NCBI GenBank assembly: GCA_024277435.1 | Contig: JAJRVJ010000009.1 | Span: forward strand, 1,226 to 65,225 | Reading direction: 5' to 3' | DNA: 64,000 bases | From: Patescibacteria group bacterium | GTDB lineage: Bacteria; Patescibacteriota; Patescibacteriia; UBA9570 | Part shown: positions 5,783 through 49,252 of the stretch, one piece after another | Numbering within the stretch: position 1 is the first letter of the stretch | Layout: each line of letters begins with the position of its first letter | Notes under the pieces: model-generated | The model's input: only the letters and a program-made list of their open reading frames with translations | Told to the model about the DNA's origin: nothing | Databases searched by the model: none | Made by a program: the position numbers and the translations under genes

Positions 5783-5785
5783 AGT

Positions 5786-6013: not shown

Positions 6014-6040
6014 TATGATGTATGTTTGTTATTCGATAAT

Positions 6041-6484: not shown

Positions 6485-6503
6485 AGATGTAATACTTAAT
6501 AAT

Positions 6504-7130: not shown

Positions 7131-7278
7131 ATATTTTTTCTTTTGTGCGTACATCCATTATTGCTATACTCGCACGATTCGAGGACAATAATATGGATAA
7201 TTAAGGATGCAACACTTAATAAATTAGCCTGCGTAGTGTACCAATAAGTTATTATGGTGTCAACTGCCGTGAGATGCC

Positions 7279-7307
7279 AAAAAACCCCTGTATTTTCAGG
7301 GGTTTTT
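7279..7307 (-). terminator. Bidirectional intrinsic terminator (cccctg-tatttt-cagggg) after the response-regulator gene
   Basis: Hairpin flanked by an A-run upstream and TTTTT downstream. Confidence 0.55.
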
Positions 7308-7330
7308 GATACATATTATTATGTGAGAAG

Positions 7331-7723: not shown

Positions 7724-9073
7724 TTATATTCGTCTTATGGGAATAGTAACATAAAATATAGAGCCCCTCCCCTTTCCTTTTGACTCAAACCAAATTTTAC
7801 CTCCTAACGACTCAATAATTGATTTTGCAACATATAATCCTAATCCAGACCCTTCTGTTCTAGACCTTTTTGCATCATCTGTTCTAAAAAATTTAGTAAA
7901 AATATTCTTTCGATCCTTTTCATCTATCCCAATGCCTGAGTCTTTTACAGATATCTTATATTCTCCCGCCTGTGCATTTTTTGTTAATTCAACGAACACA
8001 CGAGATGCCTTTGGAGAATAATATAGTGCATTACTAATTAAATTCCGAATCACTTGAAAAAAATAAATATGATCCACTCTTATCATTTCATTATCTTGTA
8101 AATGTGGTGTAAATACAATTTCCTGCCCTTCCTCTCTTGCTAATAAGCTAAATTCTTTAATAAGTTCTTCAATACCCTCCTTGATATTAATATTAACTGG
8201 CTTGAATTCTAGTTTGGCAGACTCAAGCCTAGATACATCAAGTAGCTCATGAACAAGCTGATGCATGCGCACATTAGAATTATGTATTAAATCCAAATAT
8301 TCTTTTTGTTTTTCATTGATCTTTCCATAATCTTCATTCAATAATGATTCAGTAAGAAGCTTAATGGCGCCAAGCGGTGTATTAAGTTGATGAGATGCAG
8401 AAGATACAAACTCTGATTTTGCACGACTCAACCGCTGCTCTTCACTGACATCTTTAAATACCACAACGCTACCATGAATCTTCTCATCACCATCAATAAC
8501 AGGTGCCGCGCACACAGAAATAGGGATAACATTGTGTGATTTTTTTATTCGCAAATAAATATTATTTACCTCTGTGAAACCGCTACATAAATTAATAGAC
8601 TTATTTACCACAGAAGCAATTGAATCAAGAACATTTGCTCCAGACTCATCTGTGGTAACAAAAACAGCATCGTACTTTTTACCAAGTACATTACTTTCTT
8701 TAGCACCAATAAAATCAAGAGCAACCCGGTTTATAGCTGTAATAGCATTATCTTCATCTATTACAAATAAGCCTTCACCAATACTTTCAATAATAGCCTC
8801 CGCTCGATTTTTTTCTTTTTCTAAAGCCATCTCTCCTTTTTTTCTATCTGTAACATCACGAATAATGGCCATTGTTCCCGACTTCCCTTTAAAAGAAATT
8901 TGTTGCGCAGAAATTTCTGTATGCCTAATCACGCCGTCTTTTCTGATGGCATCAAACGAGTATTGTTTTGGAACATCTTTTCCGGCCAAACGATCCTGAT
9001 ATCTTTTTAAGATCAATGGACGATGATACTCTGCAACAAGTTGTAGTATTGGCATTCCAATAAGCTCTTCCAC
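7724..9073 (-). CDS. PAS-HisKA-HATPase sensor histidine kinase (C-terminal portion of a disrupted larger sensor; starts at GTG directly after an in-frame TAG)
   Basis: H-box FVSSASHQLNTPL and ATP-binding GSGLGLYVAKSIIESLGG. Its first codons, VEELIGMPILQL, complete a PAS motif begun in the upstream ORF. Confidence 0.8.
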   Translation of the reverse strand: MEELIGMPILQLVAEYHRPLILKRYQDRLAGKDVPKQYSFDAIRKDGVIRHTEISAQQISFKGKSGTMAIIRDVTDRKKGEMALEKEKNRAEAIIESIGEGLFVIDEDNAITAINRVALDFIGAKESNVLGKKYDAVFVTTDESGANVLDSIASVVNKSINLCSGFTEVNNIYLRIKKSHNVIPISVCAAPVIDGDEKIHGSVVVFKDVSEEQRLSRAKSEFVSSASHQLNTPLGAIKLLTESLLNEDYGKINEKQKEYLDLIHNSNVRMHQLVHELLDVSRLESAKLEFKPVNINIKEGIEELIKEFSLLAREEGQEIVFTPHLQDNEMIRVDHIYFFQVIRNLISNALYYSPKASRVFVELTKNAQAGEYKISVKDSGIGIDEKDRKNIFTKFFRTDDAKRSRTEGSGLGLYVAKSIIESLGGKIWFESKGKGRGSIFYVTIPIRRI

Positions 9074-9706
9074 CTAATAGCCTGTAATCTTAACGGTTGC
9101 ATGATTTGTAAATACTAATTTTCCATCCTGTATGATATTAATACTGTCATGCGCACCATTAACAACCGCAGAATACTTAGTCTCGGATTCTTGTAATTTT
9201 GCAAAAGCCTCCTGTCGCTCCGTAACATCTTCATGCATCATGACTACACTCTGAATCGTATCATTTTTATCTTTGATAGAGTATATCTGCGACTGCACCC
9301 AACGCTTCCTGCCCCTTATCTTAACCGACGTTGTTTTTTCTGGCGTATATTCAAACACTGGAAGAGTAACTACCTCTCCTGCAAACGCTTTTTCAATAAG
9401 AGGCATAAATCCCAATGCTCGAATCTGATCATCTTTTAAGATATTATACTTTTTATGAATCAACGATAATTCTTCTCGACTCACATCCCATAATTTACTA
9501 TACGCATCATTAACTTGTGTGATTTTACCGTCAGGCGTCATTATTTGAATAGCAATAGTAGACTGCTCCATTAACATTCTGAATTTTTCTTCGCTCTGCT
9601 GCAACTCAAGCTTTGTCTGCTCAAGATCTTCAAGCATATTCAATAAAACAGCAGGCTTAAGCAGCTTCTTAGTAGTACGTTCCTTGTTTCTTGCTCTCTT
9701 AATCAA
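9074..9706 (-). CDS. PAS-domain linker protein (middle fragment of disrupted sensor kinase)
   Basis: Coiled-coil linker followed by a PAS fold. Ends ...VFTNHATVKITGY then TAG, which is the TGYxxEELIG PAS signature interrupted by a stop. Confidence 0.7.
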   Translation of the reverse strand: MIKRARNKERTTKKLLKPAVLLNMLEDLEQTKLELQQSEEKFRMLMEQSTIAIQIMTPDGKITQVNDAYSKLWDVSREELSLIHKKYNILKDDQIRALGFMPLIEKAFAGEVVTLPVFEYTPEKTTSVKIRGRKRWVQSQIYSIKDKNDTIQSVVMMHEDVTERQEAFAKLQESETKYSAVVNGAHDSINIIQDGKLVFTNHATVKITGY

Positions 9707-10721: not shown

Positions 10722-10889
10722 CTCGAAAAATCTTATCGAGTTATTCCTGCAGCATGCTCTATGCTATGCAGTATATCACTTCATATTTGCGTGGCAAATA
10801 AAACCCCCGCTCAAACTCATCCCTCTTCTCTACATACATCAATATAGTATATGTACAGGAAAGGACCGGAAGATACGTGGATCAATCCA

Positions 10890-11370
10890 CTATTCTCGAC
10901 GTCCGGCTGGAACACAATCAAGATAGCTCCTAGCTCCATCGAGGTAGATCCGCCAGCGGCCCTCATAGAAGGCCTGACTGAACTCGATCTCCTCGCGGGT
11001 GTAGTGCTTGTAACGCTTCAGCAAGGCGTCAATATCCTTGACCAGGCCAAAGTACAGATGGGTACAGAGGTGAATCCTCTCCAGCTGCCTGCCAACAGTT
11101 ATCTGCGGATCAATGTCTCCCTGCTCGGTCAACTGCTGCGTTCAAGATGCAGATGTAGGCTTCAGCCGTAAGAGGCTTCGTGTTCTTAGCGAGGTCGATA
11201 AGCCGCCGTATGACGCAGATGTAGCGTCCCTTCGTGCGACAAGTGTGGGAGGTGCGGAACTTCCCACTCTTGCGGAACATCTCCTCAGCAACGAGAATCT
11301 GCACATCTTCAAGAGTAATGCGATCCATGATGTAAATTCCTTTGGGAATGTGCGGTATCAAGTGAAACAA
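10890..11370 (-). pseudogene. GC-rich island carrying a frameshifted ~165-aa ORF of unknown family (foreign-looking remnant)
   Basis: Composition at 10860-11340 is clearly more GC-rich than the flanks. Two overlapping minus-strand ORFs (11370-11110 and 11132-10890) would join by a 1-nt shift near 11125. Confidence 0.4.
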
Positions 11371-11475
11371 AAGCGATTCAAATGACTATGCAGTATAGTT
11401 AATTAGCGTATAATGTAAATTTAATAATTATATATAGTAAATATTGAATATTTTTAGCTAACATTATATAATTAT

Positions 11476-11507
11476 TTGTAATAATATTTATTACAACATT
11501 ATATAAT
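11476..11507 (+). promoter_or_regulatory. Putative sigma70-like promoter for the TrmB-family regulator, embedded in two direct repeats aacattatataat (11460 and 11495)
   Basis: TTGTAA ... TATAAT/TTATAT 12-20 nt upstream of the ATG. Direct repeat and ATTATT-N3-AATAAT dyad in the same AT-rich spacer. Confidence 0.3.
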
Positions 11508-11518
11508 AATCTCAAGAC

Positions 11519-21704: not shown

Positions 21705-22821
21705 AATCTGTAACTAATTGAAGAAATTGTTCACTCACCACGGTAATATCGTGGTGAGTTTTTGCATACACGTATGCTTTCTTACTCATTACATCTAATT
21801 GCTGCTCATTATTTGAAACCTGCTGAATAACCTGTATTAATTCTTTATCTGTATCAGCAATTAACCCAAAGTTATGCTTTTGAAGAATATCATCAGGATT
21901 CACCCCGCGTGAAATAATTGGCGTACCGTGTTTTGCGGCCTGAATATACGTATTAGGAAATCCTTCCATACTTGATGTATTCACAAATAGCTTAGCCTTA
22001 GCGAAATATTCATCTATATCATTAAGCGGTACGCTCTCTATAAAATCTACATTCGATAATTTCCCGGCACGTTTACACCACTCTTCATATTGTTGCGGAT
22101 AATTACCAGCCGGCATTATCATAATAAACCGTTCATCAGGCAAAGCTTCTGCTGCATCAAGTAGCCGCTCTGGATGTTTCCATGTTTCGCCTCGGCCAAC
22201 CCATAGCACGCCATCACGTTCATTCATTGGTACTATATCTGTAGGAATTTCATAAGCTGTTGATAATAATGGGCCTTTAATACCATAATTATCCTTTAGC
22301 ATTGTTTGCTGATTGTTATTTTGTAAAATAACCAAAGAAGCATTACGCATACCCCATACTCCTAACTTACCAATGAGGCCTCGTTCCCGTTCAAACTGAC
22401 CAGATACATCCCACTCATGAGCCACCATATACACAAACTTCTTTCTGAATACCTTGCAGTATAGCGCTGCAAACCCTGTTTCTGGACCCATAGCGCGCTG
22501 AATATATATATCTGACTGCGATCTATGAAGTTGCCAAAAAAAACGTACTAGGCCAGTAATATGAGAAAAAATAGGAATAGCTCTACTAATACGCAATGTA
22601 CGTCGTAATTCAATATTCTTATACTGCGATACCTCAGATGATTTGCCTGAAGTTAAAAAAACAACTTTCGGTTTTTTATCTTTGCTAATAGTGGTAGCTA
22701 ATTGATACAACTGCACTTCCGCGCCTCCATACGTAACGCCTTCCGATGGAGCAAATAATCCATAAGCGTAATATGCAATAAAGCAAATTGATTGTTGATT
22801 ATCTTTATTGTTTGACATCAA
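21697..22821 (-). CDS. GT4 glycosyltransferase
   Basis: EGFPNTYIQAAKHGTPIIS C-terminal GT-B motif. Converges with asnB, overlapping it by 8 nt. Confidence 0.75.
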   Translation of the reverse strand: MMSNNKDNQQSICFIAYYAYGLFAPSEGVTYGGAEVQLYQLATTISKDKKPKVVFLTSGKSSEVSQYKNIELRRTLRISRAIPIFSHITGLVRFFWQLHRSQSDIYIQRAMGPETGFAALYCKVFRKKFVYMVAHEWDVSGQFERERGLIGKLGVWGMRNASLVILQNNNQQTMLKDNYGIKGPLLSTAYEIPTDIVPMNERDGVLWVGRGETWKHPERLLDAAEALPDERFIMIMPAGNYPQQYEEWCKRAGKLSNVDFIESVPLNDIDEYFAKAKLFVNTSSMEGFPNTYIQAAKHGTPIISRGVNPDDILQKHNFGLIADTDKELIQVIQQVSNNEQQLDVMSKKAYVYAKTHHDITVVSEQFLQLVTDSI

Positions 22822-25162
22822 ATAACTTTGTTAATACTGATCCGTTACGCGCAAATGAATGATTTTTTAACGCATACATGTACGCATTCTCTACATATGT
22901 TACTACGTCTACATCCTTTTCCATAACACGATGCAAAAGATCAATGAGTGTATTCTCATCACCTTGAGCACACCACCCCATCTTATGCGACTGTAATATA
23001 GTATCAGGATCAACATGCAACGAAATAATAGGGCATCGATGTAACGCTGCTTGCACAAACGTATTTGGAAAACCTTCGCTTTTCGAAGTGTTTATAAATA
23101 CTCGAGCTTGCGCAAAATATTGAGATATATCCTGAAAAGGAACATTAGGAATGTATTGCACATTATCCAGCAAATTAACTTTCTTACGAACCTGTGCAAT
23201 TAACTCTTGATCAACAGTTTCGGCCATGATCATAACATACCGATACTGAGGATACTGCTCTGCTAATCGCAAAAATATTTCCGGCTGTTTTACTGCCGCC
23301 GCACGACCCACCCACAATATAGTATCTCGCTCTGATACTTTCGTACCTTCTAATTTCTTTGTAACAAAATATGAAGAATAAATTAAAGTGCTGGAAATAT
23401 TAGGCATCATTATTTGTAATTGTTTATGCTGATCATCACTCTGTGTGATAACTGCATTAGCCTGCTTCATGCCCCAAAATGCAAATTTCGTTAGCAGATC
23501 ACCTTGCCTCCGATACTTCATATCAACTTCACGATCATGAGCGATCATATAAATAAATTGTTTACGCATTATTTTGCAATATAGTGCGATCATACCTGTT
23601 TCTGGACCAATAGAACGCTGTATAAAGGTAGTTGCGCCACTAAGTTGCATGTGATGCCATAAACGTATCATGGCAGCAATATTAGAAACAACGCCGTACT
23701 TGCGTTGCGAAGAAATGGATTTATGTACAACAACACCATCATATTCTTCAATAGTAAATTTCTTAGCGCCCTGAGTAATAACGTGTACAGAATAACCTTG
23801 TTCAAGTAAATATTTAGACCACAAGTATAGCTGCACCTCAGCCCCGCCATATTTTATACCCGCATTTGAATTATATAACCCATATCCATGGTAGCTGACC
23901 ATACATACATCAGAGCGTTGCTTACACTTTTGCAAATAAGTGCTTATTGTTAATCCAGCAGATAACAGTAGTAGTGGATACAAGGGAATACCATAACGCG
24001 GCACTGCATTAAGAGGCATATAAATGACAATATGATACAAAAAAATAACAGAAAAAACTGTATAAAATATTGAAAATTTCTTAAACTGAAATACCCCAAG
24101 CAACGCCAGTGATAAAATAATAACTTGCACTGTAAAAGCTAAAACTAAAGCTATGCTGGCTATAACATTGGATTGTAATGCCCCCATTATTAATAACGTT
24201 TGCATGCCTTCTGGTTGAAATAAGATTTTTAGAGGCTTTTTTGCGTATACCACCGCAACAGCTAAAGGATCTTCCTTGATATTTTGCAAAGTCATTTCAC
24301 GCAACAACGCCTCCTGTTCATCCACAGTAAGTGATTTATCTTTCACTTCAGATAATGGCCATATATGGCCCTGCCAATCCCCGTCCCATGGAACATAACT
24401 TCCTGTCCAATAAATTGCGCCACCACCCTGTCGCCCAAGCACAAATTCGTCAAATTGTATTGCATTACGAATGAACCACGGGCTCACAACAGCCGCAAAG
24501 ACAATGATAAACACACTGCTATGGACAAAAATAGTTTTTATACTACGTGTCCGTCGCTCTACCAGCCAAATGATACCTACCATAAGTAACGGTAAAAATA
24601 AAGCAGCCGACCGAGTTAATGCTAATAATCCTATAGCCATGCCACTAACAATGAACCATCTTACCGTCTTTTTATCTAATGCCAACAAAAAAAGAAAAAT
24701 ACATAGCACCAACAATGCTGCATATAACGTTTCTGTCATTATCTCACCAGAATAGACTATCACCGCAGGAAACATTCCAAATGAAAATGCAGCAATAATA
24801 CCAGATTGATTTGATAAAAATTTCCTACCAATCCAATATATTCCCACACACGTAACTGCCGCTAATAAAGCCTGAACAATTTGCGGACCAATAATCGAAT
24901 GTCCAAACATTGCATAAAGCGGCGCTAATATAAATAATGAATACCCTGGTTCACGTTCTGCGCTAGGGATGCCTGAGGTAACTGATAAGCCATCCCCCTG
25001 CACAACATTCCAGGCCATAGCGTCAAAAATACTGGAATCATTCCAGTGCAAAGGCGCTATACCTAAAGCAATATATGACAAATGTATCACTGCAATCACT
25101 ACAAAAATTGCAAGCGAGACATATCGTGGCGGCATTGTCGTAAATACTTTTTTTAGATTCAT
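22805..25162 (-). CDS. Fusion protein: N-terminal GT-C (ArnT/PMT-like, GT39/83) membrane glycosyltransferase + C-terminal GT4 domain
   Basis: The N-terminal 400 aa are a paralog of the next two genes (REPGY...FGHS, GEIMTE, YVPWDGDWQGHIWPL). The C-terminus carries ...GGAEVQLY... and EGFPNTFVQAALHRCPIIS like the 21697 GT4. Confidence 0.75.
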   Translation of the reverse strand: MNLKKVFTTMPPRYVSLAIFVVIAVIHLSYIALGIAPLHWNDSSIFDAMAWNVVQGDGLSVTSGIPSAEREPGYSLFILAPLYAMFGHSIIGPQIVQALLAAVTCVGIYWIGRKFLSNQSGIIAAFSFGMFPAVIVYSGEIMTETLYAALLVLCIFLFLLALDKKTVRWFIVSGMAIGLLALTRSAALFLPLLMVGIIWLVERRTRSIKTIFVHSSVFIIVFAAVVSPWFIRNAIQFDEFVLGRQGGGAIYWTGSYVPWDGDWQGHIWPLSEVKDKSLTVDEQEALLREMTLQNIKEDPLAVAVVYAKKPLKILFQPEGMQTLLIMGALQSNVIASIALVLAFTVQVIILSLALLGVFQFKKFSIFYTVFSVIFLYHIVIYMPLNAVPRYGIPLYPLLLLSAGLTISTYLQKCKQRSDVCMVSYHGYGLYNSNAGIKYGGAEVQLYLWSKYLLEQGYSVHVITQGAKKFTIEEYDGVVVHKSISSQRKYGVVSNIAAMIRLWHHMQLSGATTFIQRSIGPETGMIALYCKIMRKQFIYMIAHDREVDMKYRRQGDLLTKFAFWGMKQANAVITQSDDQHKQLQIMMPNISSTLIYSSYFVTKKLEGTKVSERDTILWVGRAAAVKQPEIFLRLAEQYPQYRYVMIMAETVDQELIAQVRKKVNLLDNVQYIPNVPFQDISQYFAQARVFINTSKSEGFPNTFVQAALHRCPIISLHVDPDTILQSHKMGWCAQGDENTLIDLLHRVMEKDVDVVTYVENAYMYALKNHSFARNGSVLTKLFDVKQ

Positions 25163-25164
25163 AC

Positions 25165-26403
25165 TTATGTATGTTTACGATAATTCGTTACAAAGCTAAA
25201 GGTATCAATCACGCCTAAACCACTCAATAACAAAATAAGAGGGTATAATGGCACTGCATAGCGTGGCACTGCATTTAATGGTAAATACACTATCACAAAA
25301 TATATCAGGATACACACTGTAATAATCGCATAATTTCTATACTTCGAAAAACGTAACATACCAATACCGGCTAATACTAGCAACACACAGTGATATACAT
25401 ACAATATAATTGCCATTAACGTCATGAATGTATTATTATTAAAAGCACCGCGCTCTAATGTAAAGTGTAGACCTTCAGGTTGAATAAATATCTTAAGAGG
25501 TTTCTTAAGATATAACCAAGCCACTGTGAGTGGATCCTGCTTAATATTTTCAATAGCTCTATCTATCATTTGAGCATCATGCTCAAAAAAATCTGCACCT
25601 GTCCGATATTCGGTAAGCGGCCATATATACCCTTGCCAGTCACCATCCCACGGAACATAACTTCCTGTCCAAATAATTTCTCCACCACCTGTTCTGCCTA
25701 ATAATACCCTATCAAACATTGTATAATTTCGTACAACCCATGGCGTATATACTGCTAAGCTAATCACACCAATCACTATTCCATACCTAATACTAAATCG
25801 AACATTTCTGGTTATTAATAACAACACTACTGGTACTATACCAATTAATGGTAATGCAGCCATGCGAGTGAGCGCGGCTAAACCGAGTAATACCCCACCT
25901 AATACGAACCATCGTGTCATTTTCTTCTCTACACCTACTAACAGCACATATGTAAACGCCGTTAATAGTAGCATAAACCAAGCTTCAGTCATGATTTCAC
26001 CAACATTCACAATAATAGCTGGATGAAGAGCAAAGATGAGAGCCGCAGCAATGCCCGCATTTTTAGATATAAATCGTTTTCCAATAACAATTAATAATAC
26101 AGCCGTAAAGGCGCTCAATAAAGCTTGAGCTACCTGAGCTGCAAAAATACTATGACCAAAAATCGCATACACTGGAACAAGTACAAAAAATGCATAACCG
26201 GGCTCTCGTAATGCATCTGGAATTCCTGGTGTATATGTAAAGCCATCACCCTGAACAAAATTCCAGGCAGTAGCATCATAAATAGCAGAATCAAACCAAT
26301 TCAATGGAGCATTTGTTAGCGCTACATACAGCAATTGAACGGCCACCACCATTATAAATACACCTATCTCAACTTTATACTTTCTTAATACGCTTATAAA
26401 CAT
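25165..26403 (-). CDS. GT-C (ArnT/PMT-like) membrane glycosyltransferase, paralog 2
   Basis: Polytopic protein with the same conserved loops (DSAIYDATAWNFVQGDG, REPGYAFF, GEIMTEA, YVPWDGDWQGYIWPL). Confidence 0.7.
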   Translation of the reverse strand: MFISVLRKYKVEIGVFIMVVAVQLLYVALTNAPLNWFDSAIYDATAWNFVQGDGFTYTPGIPDALREPGYAFFVLVPVYAIFGHSIFAAQVAQALLSAFTAVLLIVIGKRFISKNAGIAAALIFALHPAIIVNVGEIMTEAWFMLLLTAFTYVLLVGVEKKMTRWFVLGGVLLGLAALTRMAALPLIGIVPVVLLLITRNVRFSIRYGIVIGVISLAVYTPWVVRNYTMFDRVLLGRTGGGEIIWTGSYVPWDGDWQGYIWPLTEYRTGADFFEHDAQMIDRAIENIKQDPLTVAWLYLKKPLKIFIQPEGLHFTLERGAFNNNTFMTLMAIILYVYHCVLLVLAGIGMLRFSKYRNYAIITVCILIYFVIVYLPLNAVPRYAVPLYPLILLLSGLGVIDTFSFVTNYRKHT

Positions 26404-27655
26404 TACTATACATATTATATACTACCGGAGCAGCTGGGATAATCAATAGAGCCATAATGGGAACATTATATCGTGTAACAGGATTTAACGGAACATAAAT
26501 GAGCGCCGCAAATATTAGTACAGATAATAATCCAATACGTACAGTGTGATCCATTTTTTTATTACGTAGTAATCCAAATAATCCAATAAACAATATGAAC
26601 CAATGAAGTAAAATCATACTACCAGTTACTACCCATAATATTGGATTTCTATTCTCCAATAGTGTAGTACCCGTTCGATTTGTGTAGTTTATTGATTCAG
26701 GAAGTAAGTAGATTTTAAATGGCTTTTTGAACCAGATCCAAGCTACGCCTAATGGATTCTCTTTAATATTTTCAATAGCAGCAGCAGTAAATTTCTTATC
26801 ATATTCCTCTCGCGTAAGATCGCCACGAATTTCATCGATAATTGGATCATCTATTCTCCACTCGCCATCAAAAGGAATATAGCTACCAGACCAATATATT
26901 TGTCCGCCACCAATTCTTCCAAAAATAAATTCATCAAACAGCACATAATTACGAACCAGCCATGGCGCTACCACAATACCTACCCCCACCAACAATAAAC
27001 CGCTATACAATATAGTCTTTTTTATATCACGCAATATAGCAAATATTCCTACAATAAGAAAAAAGGGTAGCACTATCGCACCCCAACGAACCAACGCCGT
27101 ATAACCCAACGCTAACCCAACGCTAAATATTAACCAGCGTGACTTACGTTGCAACGCCAAAATAAACAAAAACAATGTTACTAGCAACCAAAACTGATAT
27201 GGAGCTTCAGTCATAATCTCACCATGCTGAAAAATAAACGGCAAGTACAAAACATACAACATGCCTCCAATCAACGCGGTGCGTTCCCCCATATATTTGC
27301 GCAAAAAATACACCACCATTAACATCATTGCAATATCTAATAGCAATTGCACAACAGCAGCCATCTCCACAGAATGACCAAATAATACATATGTAGGGAC
27401 TAATAGAAACAAGGCATATCCTGGTTCACGAAAAGCAAACGCCACCCCTTCTTCATAAACATATCCATTCCCCTCAACTACGTTCCAAGCCGGAATGTCG
27501 TACGCTGGAGAATCTCCACTATACGGCGTTAGTGGTGGATTATAACTAAAAAAATACACCGTGCGAATAATTAACGCACAAAGAACCAAGGCTATTACAC
27601 CAGTTCGGAAAAATACTTTACTATTTAAGGAATTTTTTTCCAATGCGGATTTCAT
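26375..27655 (-). CDS. GT-C (ArnT/PMT-like) membrane glycosyltransferase, paralog 3
   Basis: DSPAYDIPAWNVVEGNG, REPGYALF, GEIMTEAPY, YIPFDGEW. Overlaps paralog 2 by 29 nt. Confidence 0.7.
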   Translation of the reverse strand: MKSALEKNSLNSKVFFRTGVIALVLCALIIRTVYFFSYNPPLTPYSGDSPAYDIPAWNVVEGNGYVYEEGVAFAFREPGYALFLLVPTYVLFGHSVEMAAVVQLLLDIAMMLMVVYFLRKYMGERTALIGGMLYVLYLPFIFQHGEIMTEAPYQFWLLVTLFLFILALQRKSRWLIFSVGLALGYTALVRWGAIVLPFFLIVGIFAILRDIKKTILYSGLLLVGVGIVVAPWLVRNYVLFDEFIFGRIGGGQIYWSGSYIPFDGEWRIDDPIIDEIRGDLTREEYDKKFTAAAIENIKENPLGVAWIWFKKPFKIYLLPESINYTNRTGTTLLENRNPILWVVTGSMILLHWFILFIGLFGLLRNKKMDHTVRIGLLSVLIFAALIYVPLNPVTRYNVPIMALLIIPAAPVVYNMYSNVYKRIKKV

Positions 27656-32849: not shown

Positions 32850-33806
32850 TTATACTTTGTAGTATCCTTTATACCAAACAATAAAATTATGTAACCCATC
32901 TGCTAGGCTAGTTTGAGGTGAAAAATCCAGTAATTCTTTAGCTTTTGAAATATCAGCATAGGTTTTATGTACATCACCTGGCTGCATAGGAAGCATATTT
33001 TTCTTCGATTCAATTCCTAATTCTTTTTCTAGTGTTTCAATCATATACATTAATTCTTCAGTTTGAGAGTTACCTAAATTGATAATTTCATAGCCAAAAT
33101 CTTTATCAAGTGCAGTTACTATTCCCGCAACAATATCATCAATATATGTGAAGTCACGTTGGTGATCGCCATTATTATAGACATCAATAGTATCACCAGC
33201 TAGCATTTTTTGTGTGAACTTGAAGTACGCCATATCTGGCCGACCCCATGGTCCGTACACGGTAAAGAAACGCAACACAATGCAATTCAAACCATATAAG
33301 TGATGATAGGTGTGAGCGAGTAACTCTCCAGCTTTTTTAGTAGCTGCATATGGAGAAACTGGATGATCTACTGGATCAGTCTCCGAAAAAGGTACCTTCT
33401 CATTACCGCCGTATACAGAAGATGTAGAAGCTAACACAAAATCCTTAACATCAAAATCGCGAGCTAACTCTAATAAGTTCAGAGTGCCGTTTACATTGGC
33501 TTGCTCATATATATATGGATTCTCTAACGATGCCCGTACACCAGCCCTCGCTCCTAAATGACAAATCTTATCAAACGCATGCTGCTCAAAAATCTTCCGT
33601 GTTCCTTCTAAATCTGAAAAATCCTGTTCATAGAATGTAAAGCCATCATAAGGCTCTAAAAAAGCCACGCGATCCCGCTTTAATTGAGTATCATAATAAT
33701 CATTAACATTATCGATGCCAATTACTGTATGTCCAGCCTCTAACAATGCTTTAGCTGTGTGACTGCCAATAAATCCTGCTACTCCGGTTACTAAAATGGT
33801 GCTCAT
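32850..33806 (-). CDS. NAD-dependent nucleotide-sugar epimerase (UDP-glucuronate 4-epimerase-like)
   Basis: TGVAGFIGSH...GIDNVNDYYD..LK..R, a YxxxK catalytic pair and a GalE-like fold. Confidence 0.7.
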   Translation of the reverse strand: MSTILVTGVAGFIGSHTAKALLEAGHTVIGIDNVNDYYDTQLKRDRVAFLEPYDGFTFYEQDFSDLEGTRKIFEQHAFDKICHLGARAGVRASLENPYIYEQANVNGTLNLLELARDFDVKDFVLASTSSVYGGNEKVPFSETDPVDHPVSPYAATKKAGELLAHTYHHLYGLNCIVLRFFTVYGPWGRPDMAYFKFTQKMLAGDTIDVYNNGDHQRDFTYIDDIVAGIVTALDKDFGYEIINLGNSQTEELMYMIETLEKELGIESKKNMLPMQPGDVHKTYADISKAKELLDFSPQTSLADGLHNFIVWYKGYYKV

Positions 33807-33815
33807 AGATAATTT

Positions 33816-35153
33816 ATGTATAATAAAGCTGCTGAACTATATCATATGCATACAAAAGCTTCAACTCACATTATTATCATAATTACCCTAGGTTTTATAT
33901 TGGCAATAATACCTTTTATTCAAAGTAATTGGTTGCCAACCTCACCAGATAGCGCAGGCTTAAGTTGTGCCGCTCAACATCTAACCTCCGCTGGAGAATT
34001 TGCTCAAAACCGAACTCGTGGATTTGATTTTCATTATAACCCATGTTGGACGCAACAAACCTATCCTGGAAACCAAGTGTTCACTGCAGGTATTATCACC
34101 ATCACAGGCGCACCTGCTAGTAGTGTTGTGGTATGGCTAAGCATTCTCACATTCATTGCCATTGCCATTGCCATATATATTGCGGTATGGCTAAGCACAG
34201 ATGAACGCACATTAGCTCTCTGGTCTGGATTAGGGGCTATTACATCATTAGCACTGGCTCGCTCACTATTGCTTACACCGCATAATTTATACGGATATTT
34301 AGGAATCATCCTGATTATTTTAGGAATTGTTATCTGGGAACGATCGCGCCACTGGTTGAGTGTTGTACTTATCATTCTGAGCATAGCTTTCCTAACAGTA
34401 TTTCACGCTTTGTCACTAGCCATTGTAGGCATTAGCCTAGCTCTCTATACTCTTGCATCTACATATAAGAAGCCAAAAATACTACTGATACTTTTTGGCG
34501 TATTACTACTAATTAATATTGGCGTTGCGCTCATCATGTTCGGCACCATAAATCCAATCGTGCCAGTTGAAAGTATTTTGGCAATGTCTATACCAGGTAT
34601 CACAAATCCTTGGTACGACCATCCTGCGGTATGGGGATATATCGCAACTAGTATTGGTGCACTTGGTATTGCCTACCGTATTAGCAGCAAAGATATGCAT
34701 CCTGCATTACATCTTGGTATCTGGATTGGCCTTGTAAGTATTTTTTTTGGTCATCCAGAAATTACACAAATTGAAATACTACCAGAACGCGTAATTGCTT
34801 ATGGATGGATACCTCTTGCAATAGCATTAGGCGATGGCGTGCTTGTAAGTACTGGTTGGCTAAAAGCTAAGTGGAGATACCTACTATCAATACTAATTAT
34901 TGCCGGCATGGCGCTACATTTTAGTATCTTTATTCAAGATAGCTATGAAGGCATTAGTAAGCGTTTTATACCTGATACAGATTTTATAGAAAGTATGCAA
35001 TGGTTAGAAACACAACGCACCGATGATACATTCCTCTTAGCAGTAGGAAATACTATTAACCGGAAAATTACCTATTCTGGATTATGGTATTACGGTGATA
35101 GTGCTTGGTATCCATGGTATCGTTTAAATCATAAAAACATCCACGCATTCTAA
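33816..35153 (+). CDS. Large polytopic membrane protein (paralog of 36805 gene); reading frame continues past an in-frame TAA to 35399
   Basis: More than 10 TM segments. The 81 codons after the TAA at 35151 align with the C-terminal domain of the 36805 paralog (TESAQAAVINYGITHMLV vs TESQIKYIQTWDIKYIAI; IVYENDQYLIYEL vs AIYKSDEFSLYQI). Confidence 0.6.
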   Translation: MYNKAAELYHMHTKASTHIIIIITLGFILAIIPFIQSNWLPTSPDSAGLSCAAQHLTSAGEFAQNRTRGFDFHYNPCWTQQTYPGNQVFTAGIITITGAPASSVVVWLSILTFIAIAIAIYIAVWLSTDERTLALWSGLGAITSLALARSLLLTPHNLYGYLGIILIILGIVIWERSRHWLSVVLIILSIAFLTVFHALSLAIVGISLALYTLASTYKKPKILLILFGVLLLINIGVALIMFGTINPIVPVESILAMSIPGITNPWYDHPAVWGYIATSIGALGIAYRISSKDMHPALHLGIWIGLVSIFFGHPEITQIEILPERVIAYGWIPLAIALGDGVLVSTGWLKAKWRYLLSILIIAGMALHFSIFIQDSYEGISKRFIPDTDFIESMQWLETQRTDDTFLLAVGNTINRKITYSGLWYYGDSAWYPWYRLNHKNIHAF

Positions 35154-35408
35154 ACAGTAGATACCACCTACTTCCCAATCGTTTATCTGGAAGACAATCC
35201 GTTACATCAACGTTTAGTTGATCTATACACAATAGTAACCACACCAGATACAGAGTCTGCTCAGGCTGCAGTTATCAACTATGGAATTACGCATATGTTG
35301 GTATGGAAAAAAGGTCCCGAGGCAAAAATATGGAAGGCTCGATTCTCCAACGAATCAATAGTCTACGAAAACGATCAATATCTGATTTATGAATTATAAG
35401 GCCACACT

Positions 35409-35660
35409 ATGAAACGCTCTCACGCTAAAATTCATATTCCCGACTGGCTACGATATATACTTCTCGCCGCTATTCTTATAGTAACCATAACAACTATTAT
35501 CAGCGCCGCCCTTCCAGATCATTTTACCATACTAGGTGACCCGTATCATCACAGCCTAAACTACGCTCCATCACGTGCCTTATGGCCATGGCTTGGAACC
35601 TGGCTCACTATTCTTATAAGTATCGTGTACGGCATATATGTACGCCACACTAAGCGCTAA
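35409..35660 (+). CDS. Small 2-TM membrane protein, hypothetical
   Basis: 83-aa ORF with two hydrophobic helices. Confidence 0.35.
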   Translation: MKRSHAKIHIPDWLRYILLAAILIVTITTIISAALPDHFTILGDPYHHSLNYAPSRALWPWLGTWLTILISIVYGIYVRHTKR

Positions 35661-35989
35661 TCTTCCTTTTGGAAAGGACTATACCCCCTATACCATACTA
35701 CGCAAATACAAATAACTACTACAACGATATATGTGATTAATGTACCAATGTACGTACTTCCAAGTATACGTGTTGCCATCATCTGCAATATTGGAAAAGT
35801 AACAACAGAAATTAACCAAGCATATAATAAACGCTCTCCCTTTGGAATTGTATTAAATGGCCATATTGCTACTGAAATAATATAGCCAATTCCGAAATAC
35901 ACTACAAAACTGGCAAGTAATACAAACATAATCATACTATGACAGCATAGCGATGGATAGATTGCTTGTAAAGTCAAAATCCGATACAA
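35657..35989 (-). CDS. Small 3-4-TM membrane protein (GtrA-like?), hypothetical
   Basis: 110-aa hydrophobic ORF. Converges with 35409 and overlaps it by 4 nt. Confidence 0.4.
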   Translation of the reverse strand: MYRILTLQAIYPSLCCHSMIMFVLLASFVVYFGIGYIISVAIWPFNTIPKGERLLYAWLISVVTFPILQMMATRILGSTYIGTLITYIVVVVICICVVWYRGYSPFQKED

Positions 35990-36001: not shown

Positions 36002-36808
36002 ATGAAAAAATACATTACTAATTCTGTCGGATATACAATTGTAGCGCTGCTTGGTTTAGCTCCAATACTACTGTTACTAGCTATATATTCACCATATCCC
36101 GGAATTATCTACATGCGACAAACATTTCGACCAAGCCCTGCTGCACAAAAGCTAGGTGTAAGTAATTTTTTTCCAGACTCCTCGTTATCTCCCGGAATAA
36201 ACCCAATTGAAAATTACCAAATACGTACCATTAATGATGCGGTTGACTTCACCGTAAAAAAAATACCCCGCACCACTTCTGCGGTAATGTACATTAATAT
36301 GAAGCAAAATGCAGCCGCTAGCGCATTACTGCACATAAGCGACACTGGTGGAGATGTCTCATATCGACTACTTGGAGCTGATGATTTTATTTCAAGTCTA
36401 CTAAAAAATGAAGACTATACGTACATTCAAGACCCTGAAACAGATATTACACTCTTCCAAAAAAAGACAAGTGCGTATTCTAGTATAAAAGAATTTATGA
36501 GTAATCCGCCGCGTAGTACCATTGGCCTTTACTATCCCCCATCGGATCAGCTAGACTCTTTTATTGAAAAAATACATACCACGCCACTTCACGCGAAAAA
36601 AAATAAACTAGCAAACGGTAATATCACTCTACCTAACTATATCATTACTTCCTGGCAAAATATCAACAATGATGAATTTGTTGAATATGAATTAAACTGG
36701 AATATGAACGCCCTTGCCATTGAACGGCAAGATTACTTTGCGTTTCGATTACGACCAAGTAGTGAGTATCCCATTACTATCAAACCAATTATCGTAGGAA
36801 TGCAATGA
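36002..36808 (+). CDS. N-terminally anchored hypothetical protein
   Basis: One N-terminal TM segment. Its stop overlaps the next gene's start as ATGA. Confidence 0.5.
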   Translation: MKKYITNSVGYTIVALLGLAPILLLLAIYSPYPGIIYMRQTFRPSPAAQKLGVSNFFPDSSLSPGINPIENYQIRTINDAVDFTVKKIPRTTSAVMYINMKQNAAASALLHISDTGGDVSYRLLGADDFISSLLKNEDYTYIQDPETDITLFQKKTSAYSSIKEFMSNPPRSTIGLYYPPSDQLDSFIEKIHTTPLHAKKNKLANGNITLPNYIITSWQNINNDEFVEYELNWNMNALAIERQDYFAFRLRPSSEYPITIKPIIVGMQ

Positions 36809-38733
36809 ATATGCTAAAAATATTGAAAGACTGGATAATCGAAATAATGCGCATAATGTTCATCCCGCTAATTATAGCGTATCTATTATTAGTAGTTACT
36901 GATGGAGTTAACCAAGATATTATTAGTCCATTTATTATTATTTCCGACTTTTCTATCCCACTTATATTCGTAGCGATAGGGTACGGTGCGCATATGTATG
37001 CAAATAAAAAGGTAAAAACCGCACTTTCAAAAAAAGCTCAGTGGACTATCCACACTAGCATCGCATCGATAATTGCCATTATCACATGGATCGCATTACA
37101 AGATTCATTGATCCTCTACAAAATAATATGTGCTCTGATCATAATGGTTGGATCACTATCTGCATACATTGCACAAAATAAATCACAAAAACGTTGGGCT
37201 ATTATTTCCATAGTTACTGTGTGTATTTTAGCTACCGCGTTGATAATTTCTTTCATTGCACAATACGAAATAGGTTTTATATCATTTGATTTTTGGAATC
37301 ACTATAACTCTAGTAAGGTCTATTCACTTACTGGAGTAGTTGGGTCATTACTATTATCGTATCAATCTTTTTATGTACTAATTGGTAGCATTCTCAATTT
37401 AACAAATACAAGCATTGCAAACGCACAAATTGTGTACACACTAAGTGTAGCTATGGTATATCTTCTTGGTGCATATAGTATGTACTATATAGGTTGTAAC
37501 CTAGGTAGTCGTCGCTATGGAATCATTAGCGCCATTATCTTCGCTTTATTTCCAATGACCACCTGGGGTGGGGCGGGATTCTTTATTCCTAATACCCTCT
37601 CTCTTATTGTATGGCCTCTACTGTTCTACTTTGGAATGCAAAAAAGGAGCAAACGTTCCATATTTCTATTCATATTAAGCGGCTTAGTTATCTTCTTATA
37701 TCATCCTTGGGATTTAGGAATTATTTTACCAGCGTTTATTATCTGGAAAGTATTCTTACAAAAACATGTTAAAGGTTTTATTTTGTGGTTTATAGTTTTT
37801 TCTGTGGGCTTTATAAGCACAGAAATTATACTGTTTATATTTGCTCCTGATTTATTCTTTTCACTACATGATTGGCTACCAAATTTTTATGGAATTTACA
37901 ATAACATAATCAGCACCATAAATACTCAATCTAGCTTCAATCCTCAGGTATTGTTTACACTAAAAAATATTTTCATTACACCTCTAGCAATAATTGGATC
38001 ATTATTTGTAATCATACGGTACATCCAAGAGCGCAATACAGGTAAATTACAGCCTATCACAAAATTCTTACTTGCTCATGTAATATTACTATATCTACTG
38101 CTATTTCTTGGATTTATTTTCGCATATAATTTTCGCATTGTTGTATTTGTCTTATTTGTCTGTGTACCGCTAGCCGCATACATGCTTCATCAATTATCAC
38201 GCCGTCATATAATAACTGGCTCTATGATCTTAGGCCTATCATTTAGTGCCCTACTATTACACAACGTAAATGTATATACAATATTAAATGGCTCAACCTA
38301 TAGTTCTCAATCGGAAAGTCAAAACATATATGCAGGACTCAAACAGATTGATCAAGAGGCTATTATACTTACCGACCCATACAGCCGTACATTTCTTATA
38401 GCGCTTGGAGCTCGCTATCGCATCCATACTAATCCTGATGAAGAAAATGAATACTATCAGATTTTTCATGAGCAAGATTGGACAGAGTCTCAGATTAAAT
38501 ATATTCAAACATGGGATATTAAATATATTGCTATTACAAATCGTACCGTAGAATGGGCACGAACCGGTAAGCCAACAACTGCTGTAACCAACTACTTATC
38601 AAGAATTGATAGCTTTATTTCCACAAAAGAAACCCTGACAGATAAACTATCAGGCGATCTCAAAGCTATTTATAAGAGTGATGAATTTTCACTCTACCAG
38701 ATTCCGGAAGATCCGGCTGCGCTACTGTATTAA
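36805..38733 (+). CDS. Large polytopic membrane protein (>12 TM) with C-terminal extracytoplasmic domain; putative GT-C-like glycosyltransferase/polymerase
   Basis: 642-aa paralog of the 33816 gene. No confident family assignment. Confidence 0.55.
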   Translation: MNMLKILKDWIIEIMRIMFIPLIIAYLLLVVTDGVNQDIISPFIIISDFSIPLIFVAIGYGAHMYANKKVKTALSKKAQWTIHTSIASIIAIITWIALQDSLILYKIICALIIMVGSLSAYIAQNKSQKRWAIISIVTVCILATALIISFIAQYEIGFISFDFWNHYNSSKVYSLTGVVGSLLLSYQSFYVLIGSILNLTNTSIANAQIVYTLSVAMVYLLGAYSMYYIGCNLGSRRYGIISAIIFALFPMTTWGGAGFFIPNTLSLIVWPLLFYFGMQKRSKRSIFLFILSGLVIFLYHPWDLGIILPAFIIWKVFLQKHVKGFILWFIVFSVGFISTEIILFIFAPDLFFSLHDWLPNFYGIYNNIISTINTQSSFNPQVLFTLKNIFITPLAIIGSLFVIIRYIQERNTGKLQPITKFLLAHVILLYLLLFLGFIFAYNFRIVVFVLFVCVPLAAYMLHQLSRRHIITGSMILGLSFSALLLHNVNVYTILNGSTYSSQSESQNIYAGLKQIDQEAIILTDPYSRTFLIALGARYRIHTNPDEENEYYQIFHEQDWTESQIKYIQTWDIKYIAITNRTVEWARTGKPTTAVTNYLSRIDSFISTKETLTDKLSGDLKAIYKSDEFSLYQIPEDPAALLY

Positions 38734-45845: not shown

Positions 45846-45965
45846 TGACTTAAGATTTAAGTATTAATTAAGGTTGAATTGTAGCACATATTATCAATAA
45901 TGTCATGAAACAATTTTGTGTTCTTCCAACCCATACATAGTATCTTATAGTAATAGTCAGAATAT

Positions 45966-46304
45966 ATGAAAAAAATGTACTTTTCTTTTGGATAGCAAAA
46001 AGCGCAGGCACAAGCATTCATTCAGTATTAGAGAAATATGATTATCCCTTATTAAAGTTACCGAAGGATTATAAACAATTTACTAATAGCGGATTTATTA
46101 CATCGCTTTTCCCTTCGCTACAACAAAAAACTTACCTTTCTTCCACTGCCAAAATTGGGTAATTTCAATGCGATTGACCTAAGTCAAGCTAACCCACAAG
46201 TTGATTGGCTCACCAACGATAATGGAAATTTACTCGTTGACTTTGTTGGCAAAATGGAAACATTATCCGCTAATGCAAATACTGCATTTGATTACACATT
46301 TTAG
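45966..46304 (+). pseudogene. Relic of a sulfotransferase-family gene (N- and C-terminal fragments, frameshifted, middle deleted)
   Basis: MKKMYFSF/WIAKSAGTSIHSVLEKY matches the fIHIPKTGGTS motif. ...NGNLLVDFVGKMETLSANANTAFDYTF matches the C-terminal vDFvGr.E.L motif. Stops and shifts lie between them. Confidence 0.45.
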
Positions 46305-46384
46305 GAAATTTAGGTGTGAATACCGGGCTTACTTGAATCAGAGAAACCAACACACTCCCCGATGCAATCACATCTCTACGTTAA

Positions 46385-46886: not shown

Positions 46887-48497
46887 CTAGAGTGATTTTA
46901 CCATATACTCTTCGGCTAATTCATAGCCAAGCTTCTCGTAATATTTTCGTACACCAACACCGGCAATTACTGCCGATTTTTTGAATCCTTTTTCTTTTGC
47001 CACCATCTCGGCTTCAGCCATAAGTTTTCTACCCAACCCACGATGCTGCGCTGCCTTACTTACTTTATCTGATACTGGAATTAATTGGCCATATACATGG
47101 AGTTCTCGAATAATCGCCGCATCCTGAAGCTCTTCATACCAGTGATGATCTATAGATTGTAACCGTAAACGCACAAAACCAAATAGCTTTGTTCTATCTG
47201 CATTTTCATACGAAATAAAATATTCTGTTCCATCAGATGCTTCATACTCATCAATATATAATTGCGCTTCTTCAATACCAGAAATATCATCGCGTGGCTC
47301 ACGACAACGGATACAATCACACTGTGCGCCCTTATCTTGCATCATCTGGCGTAAATTAGTTACTGTATTTCCGCCCTCAATAGAATTTTCAGGAATATCA
47401 CGGACTAATCTTTCAATTCGACAATAATAAGGAACCTCATTTTTAATATCAATTAATAAATCTGTCAACGTTTGCTCTGAATATGATTTATAACGCCCTG
47501 CTTTCCAATGGCGATACAGTGGTGCAGATTTTACTACTACACAAGGATAAATTTTAATGTGATCGGGCTGATACGCTGGATCTGAAAAAATAGTTTTAAT
47601 ATCATGCAAATCAGTTTCAGGTATTGCCCCCGGTAAGTTTTGCATCATGTGATAGGTAATTTTAATCCCGGCTTCTTTCAATAACTTAGTTGCCTGTTGC
47701 ACACCCTCATTTGTTTGATCACGCAGCGTTAAAGCTAATACATGCTTATTTAATGTTTGCACACCAATTTGCATACGGGTAGCACCAAACCAGCGCAACC
47801 GCTTTACTTCTGCCTCATCAATATGATCTGGTCGAGTTTCTAACGTACAACCAATCACTCTATATTTTGCTATTTCATTTAAACGCTTGGCCTCTTCAAG
47901 TGTTTCTGCACCATCCGGCCGCTCATCTAAATTAAAGCCATCGTAACAACGCTTCATGAACCATTCTTGATAATCATTTGGATACGCTGTCCAAGTTCCT
48001 CCCAATACAATTAATTCACACTTTTCTGGAATGTGTCCATTACGCTCCAATGCCTCAATGCGTTTTGTTACTTGTTCATACGGATCAAACTTTAAACGCA
48101 ACGCTCGCATTGCGCCCGGCTCGGTATCAATATAACTCTTCGGCATATTCGATTCGGTTGGACAGTACGTACAACGACCTGGACACTGATACGGTTTCGT
48201 AAGAACTGTAATAGGTGCAATACCAGATAGTGTACGCACACTCCGCACCTGAAGTATTCTCATAAACGCAAAATCCTCTTCCATGTCACCTTGCTCAATC
48301 ATAGTGCGATACTCTTTAAGGATATCTGCGTTCGTAGGCATTTGAATTTTATACTCCTTACATATCTCCGCTTTTACTCGGCGCAATTCCAAAGCATCGC
48401 CAACGCTGCGGTTGATGGATTTCGTAATAATTTCACGCACTGCCTCTACTGGTGACGTTACTTTATTATCTAATTTTGTTACAGGCCCTGTATTCAT
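46887..48497 (-). CDS. elp3: Elp3-like radical-SAM + GNAT protein (tRNA wobble-uridine carboxymethyl/acetyl-transferase homolog)
   Basis: Radical-SAM CPGRCTYC (CxxxCxxC), a TIM-barrel region, and a C-terminal GNAT with HRGLGRKLMAEAE. The length of 536 aa matches Elp3. Confidence 0.85.
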   Translation of the reverse strand: MNTGPVTKLDNKVTSPVEAVREIITKSINRSVGDALELRRVKAEICKEYKIQMPTNADILKEYRTMIEQGDMEEDFAFMRILQVRSVRTLSGIAPITVLTKPYQCPGRCTYCPTESNMPKSYIDTEPGAMRALRLKFDPYEQVTKRIEALERNGHIPEKCELIVLGGTWTAYPNDYQEWFMKRCYDGFNLDERPDGAETLEEAKRLNEIAKYRVIGCTLETRPDHIDEAEVKRLRWFGATRMQIGVQTLNKHVLALTLRDQTNEGVQQATKLLKEAGIKITYHMMQNLPGAIPETDLHDIKTIFSDPAYQPDHIKIYPCVVVKSAPLYRHWKAGRYKSYSEQTLTDLLIDIKNEVPYYCRIERLVRDIPENSIEGGNTVTNLRQMMQDKGAQCDCIRCREPRDDISGIEEAQLYIDEYEASDGTEYFISYENADRTKLFGFVRLRLQSIDHHWYEELQDAAIIRELHVYGQLIPVSDKVSKAAQHRGLGRKLMAEAEMVAKEKGFKKSAVIAGVGVRKYYEKLGYELAEEYMVKSL

Positions 48498-48556
48498 AAG
48501 CTACGGAAGGATACTGTAAATACACGAATAAATCAAGATACCCTTATACTACGGCT

Positions 48557-49064
48557 CTATGTAAGCTGCATTAACTGAATAGCATCTCCTATACGAGGAT
48601 TATAATATAGATAGTAATGAAAATCCGCCAATATAAATTCACTAGCACTCATCTGGCCAACAAATTCATAACCCTCCATTGGCGAAGTGAATCCATGCTG
48701 CACAGGCAACGGATACAGTCCAAAAAATACTCCTCTCCCCCTACCTTTAGATCCTGCATTGCAGTATATACTAAACTCTGCCAATTATTGTATTCAGCAT
48801 TATTCGTATCAATTACAGGTTGCGGTGGAACAGCAGCTGGCCAATCATAATCCGTAAATGCACATACCCCTTTGGCAACTTATCCGCGTATCCTGCAATT
48901 AGCTCCTCAAATGGAGCAATCTCTTTTACTGAAAAAGCAATGTCAGCAACCTTACCGTTTGTGTAAGAAATTTCTACCTCCTCAAGATCTGGCGCCTCCC
49001 AATATAATAACGGTAGCCGACCGCTCCACGCTGGACTTACTAATTGCAAATCAATCCAACACAA
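48557..49064 (-). pseudogene. Degenerate coding remnant (two out-of-frame minus-strand ORFs, possibly a GyrI-like/unknown small-protein gene)
   Basis: ORFs 49064-48813 and 48784-48557 are separated by a stop and shift. The protein-like composition is on the minus strand only. Confidence 0.25.
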
Positions 49065-49252
49065 TGGCGCAATCTTATCTTATAAGTGCTCAAATCCCTA
49101 TTGAAACACATCATTCCATTCAGGAAATAAGGTTGAGTGTTCGGCTCGTCTTTAAATGAATATGTAGTAAACATTTTCATAATGGTTGTACATGTTCTCT
49201 AACATTATCTATACTACCACATATACGGCCCACTAAAAGATGGCTAAGAATT

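Follow-up and report, generated by a model that had tools for sequence, protein, structure and literature searches.

Is the 445-residue open reading frame (ORF) at 33816..35153 a complete gene, or the front part of a longer one cut short by a premature stop codon? If it is cut short, is the stop a real mutation, an error in the sequence, or a signal that the cell decodes? The ORF lies on the forward strand of a stretch of DNA of 64,000 nucleotides that belongs to an uncultured bacterium of groundwater type; the whole stretch was analyzed and is called the window here. According to the ORF list and the translation, it is closed by TAA at 35151-35153, and the frame beyond this codon continues for 81 further codons without a stop until TAA at 35397-35399. 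The original prediction had placed the stop and the 81 open codons, ending at 35399, correctly.

At the base composition of the window, 81 codons free of stops would be expected by chance with a probability of ~0.006. No other window ORF of 100 aa or more is followed in frame by a long open stretch (>40 codons) that lacks a start codon within its first few codons, where a neighboring gene would have one. Codon-usage log-odds trained on 30 confident window genes gave a score per codon of 0.173 for the tail versus 0.165 for the head, and the other five frames of the tail scored negative. In-frame ATG, GTG, and TTG codons are missing from the first 47 codons of the tail, the earliest being found at 35295 (codon 494). 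The gene can be divided into the following parts.

33816..35150, forward strand: 5' part of the GT-C gene, 445 codons, predicted to encode ~13 transmembrane (TM) helices and the first half of a C-terminal α/β domain.
35151..35153, forward strand: premature TAA, codon 446, placed by codon alignment and falling in loop 433-452 of the structural model.
35154..35396, forward strand: 81-codon tail, the predicted distal half of the C-terminal α/β domain, recognized by ortholog matches, conservation, and coding signature.
35397..35399, forward strand: ancestral stop TAA of the full-length gene of 527 codons, aligned with the ends of the orthologs.

The ATG at 33846 (M11), where the N-termini of the orthologs align, may be the true start.

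We searched the fused product, in which both sides of the stop are joined, against 5.8 billion protein clusters. The deposited 445-aa ORF itself was recovered as P0001, which comes from one 72,679-bp NCBI contig. The remaining matches were four homologs with lengths of 517-525 aa, and each of them spans 96-98% of the fused sequence. At the column of the stop, the four homologs carry Ala, Gln, Lys, and Ser. The closest are P0002 and P0003, which share ~55% identity with the fused product and are both syntenic with it. The tail alone matches P0003 with E=2e-22 and P0005, a Candidatus Kerfeldbacteria protein, with E=3e-14. Identity to the orthologs is 0.53 in the tail versus 0.55-0.57 in the head, and the order of conservation by codon position, second > first > third, persists in the tail.

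The wider family gives the same picture at the site of the stop. Across 28 aligned relatives, the column holds a sense residue in 23, a gap in five, and a stop in none; in the 29-sequence alignment, K, A, S, Q, E, and D are among the residues of this variable column. Further along, N519 of the YEN motif in the tail is the sole residue that is invariant in all 29 sequences, and two other tail residues, P477 (27/29) and I524 (28/29), are highly conserved. The original prediction that this gene carries a nonsense codon is thus borne out by the orthologs: the full-length members (505-570 aa) have a sense residue at the stop column, no relative has a stop there, and homology continues through the tail. 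These comparisons support the conclusion that the gene bears an in-frame nonsense codon and that the 81-codon tail is its own conserved C-terminus. An in-frame stop facing a sense codon in intact orthologs, with homology continuing beyond it, is what identifies a nonsense pseudogene or a loss-of-function allele.

The codons at the site suggest how the stop may have arisen. The window reads TTC TAA ACA, one syntenic locus (L002) TTT CAA ACA, and another (L001) TTT GCA AGC. Since the CAA of L002 is one C>T change away from TAA, a single C>T substitution would be the simplest origin of the stop, with the ancestral CAA being read from an ortholog that is just 55% identical, at a variable column.

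The tail had initially been identified in a different way, through a proposed alignment with the C-terminal extracytoplasmic domain of a presumed paralog encoded downstream.

36805..38733, forward strand: intact 642-aa polytopic membrane protein, with syntenic counterparts of 637 and 639 aa at the orthologous loci.

That alignment did not reach significance. The tail compared with the last 143 aa of the 36805 protein gave a BLASTP E-value of 0.10, and the best BLASTP alignment of the fused product with the whole 642-aa protein covered 12 residues (E=2.9). Comparison of the two small family profiles by hhalign assigned the C-terminal region a probability of 2.9%. With deeper profiles, hhalign matched the TM core, at 79.7% and E=1.5e-5, between residues 83-222 and 186-324. 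The proposal that the 36805 protein is a paralog sharing the C-terminal tail is therefore not supported, the similarity being confined to the membrane core, through which it would be a distant relative at most.

The family is small: when its profile HMM was run exhaustively against 1.84 billion representative proteins (E<=1e-3), just 64 clusters at 50% identity were recovered. About 24 of these 64 are full-length (511-563 aa) and reach the C-terminal end of the profile. P0001 (445 aa) stops at profile position 439, and among the relatives that fall short of the profile end it is the closest one. The other short proteins among the close relatives are fragments only (P0012, P0023), and several more distant relatives are unmatched at the C-terminal end of the profile. 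With the 5-sequence alignment as the query, eight loci with relatives were found in species-representative genomes; they are labeled as four Candidatus Kerfeldbacteria metagenome-assembled genomes (MAGs), three 'uncultured Gammaproteobacteria' bins, and one unclassified bacterial MAG. The gene is uninterrupted in six of the eight, the L008 copy being broken by an N-run and the L010 copy running off the contig end. A second word-index homology search, also with an alignment as the query, returned fewer matches than the first.

Neither the window protein nor its ortholog matched a Pfam or NCBIfam model above threshold, and a PDB sequence search returned nothing for the window protein. Weak matches appear among the 29 aligned members (one to PMT_2, one to PTPS_related), and three of ten more distant relatives that were scanned match PMT_2 or DUF6541. 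We take PMT_2 (PF13231), DUF6541 (PF20176), and PTPS_related (PF10131) to belong to the GT-C superfamily, going by the Pfam clans. The family thus resembles these groups in the weak matches of its most distant profile members, and the window also encodes three clear PMT_2 proteins, but the window protein and its close relatives stay below threshold for all of these models.

The fold was modeled with AlphaFold2. A model built on the 5-sequence alignment was poor (pLDDT 58) and was replaced by one built on the 29-sequence alignment, with a mean pLDDT of 92.7 and a pTM of 0.91. In the model, ~13 membrane helices take up the chain as far as residue ~379, and residues 383-527 form an extracytoplasmic α/β domain. 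When it was compared with the PDB using Foldseek, ranks 1-27 were occupied exclusively by GT-C enzymes (E 2e-8 to 1e-3, TM up to 0.64), with STT3, PglB, AglB, ArnT, DPY19, AftA, ALG9, ALG12, AftD, and Pmt4 represented; the shallow model retrieved the same families.

The modeled protein shares several traits with solved GT-C enzymes that have a C-terminal extracytoplasmic domain, namely ~13 TM helices, an α/β domain on the outer face, and an Asp in the first loop. Query-normalized TM scores to the window model are 0.62-0.64 for yeast and human STT3, 0.56-0.59 for PglB, 0.59 for ArnT, and 0.57 for AglB, yet sequence identity to the solved enzymes is merely 10-14%. The Asp is D45 of an SPD motif, situated in the first external loop directly after TM1 and invariant in 25 of 25 full-length members. 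An acidic residue in the first loop is typical of GT-C enzymes, and a catalytic role for D45 would fit this pattern. Two other invariant residues, H197 and R325, likewise sit upstream of the stop. Direct reading of residues 383-527 of the fused translation revealed no oligosaccharyltransferase WWDYG-type motif, so by that criterion the protein is not an oligosaccharyltransferase. The only WWDYG-like string is NPWYDHPAVWGY, at about residues 264-275, and it belongs to one of the external loops of the membrane domain.

Based on the predicted structure, the product is a GT-C-fold membrane glycosyltransferase of a small uncharacterized family. Its gene sits in a surface-glycan biosynthesis cluster, together with genes for GT2 and GT1 transferases, the three PMT_2 proteins, epimerases/dehydratases, a DegT aminotransferase, a Wzx-like flippase, and an asparagine-synthase-type amidotransferase. 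This context is compatible with a polyprenyl-phosphate-linked donor. By analogy of fold and gene context, we infer that the intact enzyme would take sugar from a lipid-linked donor and pass it to an acceptor outside the cytoplasm. In the proposed mechanism, the sugar would be donated by polyprenyl phosphate and accepted on the outer side of the membrane, with the invariant Asp45 and the C-terminal extracytoplasmic α/β domain taking part in the transfer. For this rare and unannotated family, a confidently predicted structure and candidate catalytic residues are now available. Among the species-representative genomes scanned, its members turned up mostly in Candidatus Kerfeldbacteria MAGs.

The model also locates the stop. 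The original prediction had the stop separating the membrane part from the C-terminal domain. The tail is indeed the conserved C-terminus of this gene, as the orthologs show, but the stop falls inside domain 383-527, with codon 446 lying in the loop formed by residues 433-452. The elements in front of it are H388-399, E406-410, H417-423, and E428-432, and those behind it are H453-457, H464-475, H480-489, E493-497, H501-509, E515-518, and E522-526, so that the tail comprises four helices and three β-strands in the model. According to the model, the stop roughly halves the domain, and three of its five β-strands, four helices, and the residues N519, P477, and I524 are lost. A single-base nonsense substitution, most simply CAA>TAA, would end translation at codon 446 and deprive the enzyme of 81 residues inside its C-terminal domain. 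With three of the five strands, the four helices, and the most highly conserved C-terminal residues gone, the truncated 445-aa product is probably inactive.

The GT-C gene is not the only interrupted gene in the window. A histidine kinase gene on the reverse strand is divided between two ORFs.

9074..9706, reverse strand: PAS ORF, 210 aa, ended by TAG at 9074-9076 in the translation.
7724..9073, reverse strand: PAS + HisKA + HATPase_c ORF, 449 aa, in the same frame without a gap, recognized by translation and domain matches.

The junction reads ...TNHATVKITGY*VEELIGMPIL... Once the two parts are fused, with the stop replaced by X, residues 191-287 match PAS_9 as a complete domain (profile 6-103 of 103), across position 211; judging by this match, the TAG at 9074-9076 splits a PAS domain of the kinase. 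Two of the ~57 genes in the window are thus interrupted by a nonsense codon, and broken genes are not unique to the GT-C site. A frameshift between the window kinase and the SBP_bac_3 ORF upstream of it was considered as a possible further lesion; a kinase relative (L026, 662 aa) is a cytoplasmic PAS kinase without an SBP domain. A third in-frame stop, at 48848-48850 between small same-frame ORFs (48617-49159), was rejected as a further case, as these ORFs have negative codon-usage scores and no Pfam matches.

We conclude, with a probability of roughly 0.62, that the stop is a recent and real nonsense allele of the GT-C-fold glycosyltransferase gene, causing loss of function, rather than a decoding device. 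Loss of function is itself probable, given the modeled structure and the conservation of what is lost. The tail is undamaged and conserved like the head, which points to a lesion that is evolutionarily recent. Each of the two lesions in the window is a substitution, and the genes that they hit, a surface-glycan gene and a sensor kinase gene, are accessory ones. This, the clean state of the rest of the window, and the large number of errors that two erroneous nonsense codons would imply all favor a real allele. In comparison with ordinary nonsense pseudogenes and loss-of-function surface-glycan alleles, the window gene is alike in having a single stop against intact syntenic orthologs, but it differs in that its tail has no additional frameshifts or stops. 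The lack of additional lesions across 81 codons means that the event is either very recent or not real.

The second of these options, an artefact of assembly, sequencing, or consensus calling, is less likely but is a realistic alternative. The true codon would then be a sense codon (e.g. CAA), or the assembler would have picked a minority strain variant. An intact gene would be expected to have just such a wholly undamaged tail, conserved like the head, but a recent real mutation would be expected to leave the tail in the same state. The only known source of the gene is one metagenome-type contig, and no independent copy was found. Exact DNA patterns with NNN at the stop had no match in species-representative genomes or JGI metagenomes, so that the comparison with strain variants yielded no second copy in either collection; the exact 445-aa protein has no encoding contig on record, and all window proteins tested, including P0001, form singleton clusters. 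A second in-frame stop within 64 kb could indicate a raised rate of substitution errors. Stops arise, however, from a small share of random substitutions, and by our own estimate two of them imply roughly tens of errors in 64 kb, whereas the rest of the window is clean, with long ORFs (1529, 785, 652, 642, and 627 aa), high coding density, and no scattered frame breaks. Whether allele or base error, this is an ordinary premature stop that requires no new mechanism.

In practical terms, the database entry of the 445-aa protein needs a note that it is truncated, and the 255 nt behind the deposited ORF are coding sequence and not "intergenic". If the stop is real, the strain carries a natural knockout in a surface-glycan cluster, and such knockouts are often tied to phage or host interactions.

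It is very improbable that the truncation is tolerated or adaptive, with activity kept or specificity altered, or that the gene is split and its product reassembles with a separately made tail. The stop does come after the membrane core and its invariant D45, H197, and R325, and bacteria can benefit from losing or altering surface-glycan genes, for instance by escaping phages, which would favor such a truncation. Against this, the lost segment holds N519 (29/29), P477, I524, and three of the five strands of one compact domain; with these strands and conserved residues gone, the leftover half-domain is unlikely to fold. A separately made tail is equally hard to reconcile with the sequence, in which no ATG, GTG, or TTG occurs before codon 494. 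A start there would leave 34 aa, which makes separate expression of the tail implausible and rules out its independent translation. Moreover, close relatives are otherwise short only where they are fragments.

We give slightly less credence still to functional read-through or suppression, in which the stops of both interrupted genes, the GT-C TAA and the kinase TAG, would be decoded, by an ochre-type suppressor tRNA reading UAA and UAG or by unusually leaky termination, and full-length proteins would be made. Programmed read-through is known from the A1 protein of phage Qβ and from eukaryotic and viral read-through genes. Known read-through stops are conserved among relatives and are usually UGA or UAG in a leaky context. 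The window gene resembles these cases in having an in-frame stop followed by an open, protein-like extension, but its stop is UAA, is unique to this sequence, and lies inside a folded domain. Suppression could account for the occurrence of TAA and TAG, a pair readable by one ochre suppressor, in two otherwise intact genes within 64 kb, with both downstream parts undamaged and coding in appearance. If it did occur, it would represent a lineage-specific tolerance of premature stops, with two such genes in 64 kb, in an uncultured bacterium that is probably related to Kerfeldbacteria.

Several results speak against decoding of these stops. The original prediction had listed regulated read-through among the possible explanations, and in its conserved, programmed form this is excluded, since a stop at this column is absent from all 28 aligned relatives and TAA is the main terminator in the window. 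TAA and TAG together close 50 of the 57 non-overlapping window ORFs, so efficient suppression would lengthen most proteins. No tRNA gene was found within the window, and a search for read-through signals among Rfam elements gave no match. Promoter and terminator patterns did not rise above chance. The RNA fold of 35130-35260 (131 nt) has a z-score of -1.7, with 10 of 200 shuffles folding equally well, and the contexts of the TAA and the TAG have no motif in common. A literature search on read-through in Candidate Phyla Radiation bacteria found no example. An alternative genetic code is ruled out by stop-codon usage (TAA 36, TAG 14, and TGA 7 among the 57 ORFs), in which TAA, as the main terminator, is evidently not reassigned.

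A nonsense allele of the GT-C gene may also affect the genes behind it, whose order is shared with the orthologous loci. The P0002 and P0003 loci have in common an EamA-like gene on the opposite strand, followed by the GT-C gene and genes for proteins of 81-92 aa, ~283 aa, and ~638 aa. In addition to the 642-aa protein described above, the window has the following counterparts.

35409..35660, forward strand: small partner gene, 83 aa, in which two hydrophobic segments can be seen by eye and an LGDPY motif is invariant, assigned by synteny and alignment.
36002..36808, forward strand: 268-aa protein, function unassigned, without a Pfam or NCBIfam match, syntenic (283 and 282 aa).

A homolog of the partner gene lies directly 3' of the GT-C gene in all four related loci checked (L001, L002, L005, and L008), and in three related loci its 5' end and the 3' end of the GT-C gene share 14-38 nt. 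Given this overlap, ribosomes that stop 255 nt early may lower the expression of the partner gene.

The small gene that follows the interrupted GT-C glycosyltransferase gene (33816-35399, plus strand; premature TAA at 35151-35153) recurs at the related loci, where it lies directly 3' of the GT-C gene, mostly overlapping it, in all four of those checked:

Window 35409-35660, plus strand: small partner gene
L001 7544-7789 and L002 7541-7819: counterparts beside the two syntenic GT-C orthologs
L005 7583-7831 and L008 7165-7560: counterparts at two further related loci

The encoded protein measures about 81-92 aa where the locus is cleanly called, shows two hydrophobic segments by eye, and retains an invariant LGDPY together with R56 and W61. 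It is likely a functional partner of the GT-C protein. Between this gene and the 268-aa gene (36002-36808, plus strand), and antisense to both, sits a further candidate gene:

35657-35989, minus strand: 110-aa hydrophobic ORF, codon score weakly positive (0.13)

At the counterpart position in L002, a 93-aa minus-strand gene is called.

The GT-C ortholog in the L008 MAG (5741-7316) also looks split. A lesion was ruled out there, as the break falls at a run of N, read as XXXX in translation, and is a scaffolding gap.

GT-C-type membrane proteins are unusually numerous in this cluster, with three PMT_2 proteins and a 642-aa protein in addition to the truncated gene. The members and the adjoining epimerase gene are as follows:

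22805-27655, minus strand: three consecutive PMT_2 proteins, 785, 412 and 426 aa long, the 785-aa one carrying a fused GT4/GT1 domain
32850-33806, minus strand: NAD-dependent epimerase, 318 aa (counterparts at L001 10886-11842 and L002 12075-13028)
36805-38733, plus strand: 642-aa GT-C-type membrane protein

In the window, the epimerase gene is the immediate 5' neighbour of the GT-C gene and is divergent from it, with only 9 nt separating the annotated starts, whereas both ortholog loci have it 3' of the gene for the ~638-aa counterpart of the 642-aa protein, immediately so in L001 and with an additional GT1 gene in between in L002. This difference in gene order indicates that a local rearrangement has taken place. 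For the GT-C gene, the ATG at 33846 may be the true start.

A second in-frame stop of the window, a TAG at 9074-9076 (minus strand), falls within a PAS domain of a histidine kinase:

7724-9706, minus strand: PAS/PAS/HisKA/HATPase histidine kinase, as two ORFs of 210 aa and 449 aa parted by the TAG
9699-10721, minus strand: 340-aa ORF with signal/TM, SBP_bac_3, TM and coiled coil

The stop junction reads KITGY*VEELIG, and a domain search of the fused translation gave a full PAS_9 match across it. The end of the SBP_bac_3 ORF overlaps the start of the PAS ORF by 8 nt in a different frame, and A5 and A6 runs (the latter at 9724-9729) adjoin the overlap. The two ORFs may reflect a frameshift in a former SBP-TM-PAS kinase; against this, the relative at L026, 662 aa long, lacks the SBP domain and is a cytoplasmic PAS kinase.

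Three stretches of 540-800 nt carry no convincing gene, which is unusual against the dense coding of the rest of the window:

10722-11518
45846-46384
48498-49252

Small ORFs inside them score negatively or weakly for codon usage and match nothing in Pfam, and searches for tRNAs and Rfam elements in the stretches were also negative. Decayed genes are one possible reading, non-coding elements of no known kind another.

Two further genes of the window are:

46887-48497, minus strand: full-length bacterial Elp3 homolog, a radical-SAM/GNAT enzyme type that modifies tRNA (TIGR01211, E=4e-160)
59293-63882, minus strand: 1529-aa protein with repeats

The repeats resemble CglD/MtsD-type (thrombospondin-3-like) adhesion proteins, with a match to NF033765 (E=8e-31) that lies far below the model's cut-off.
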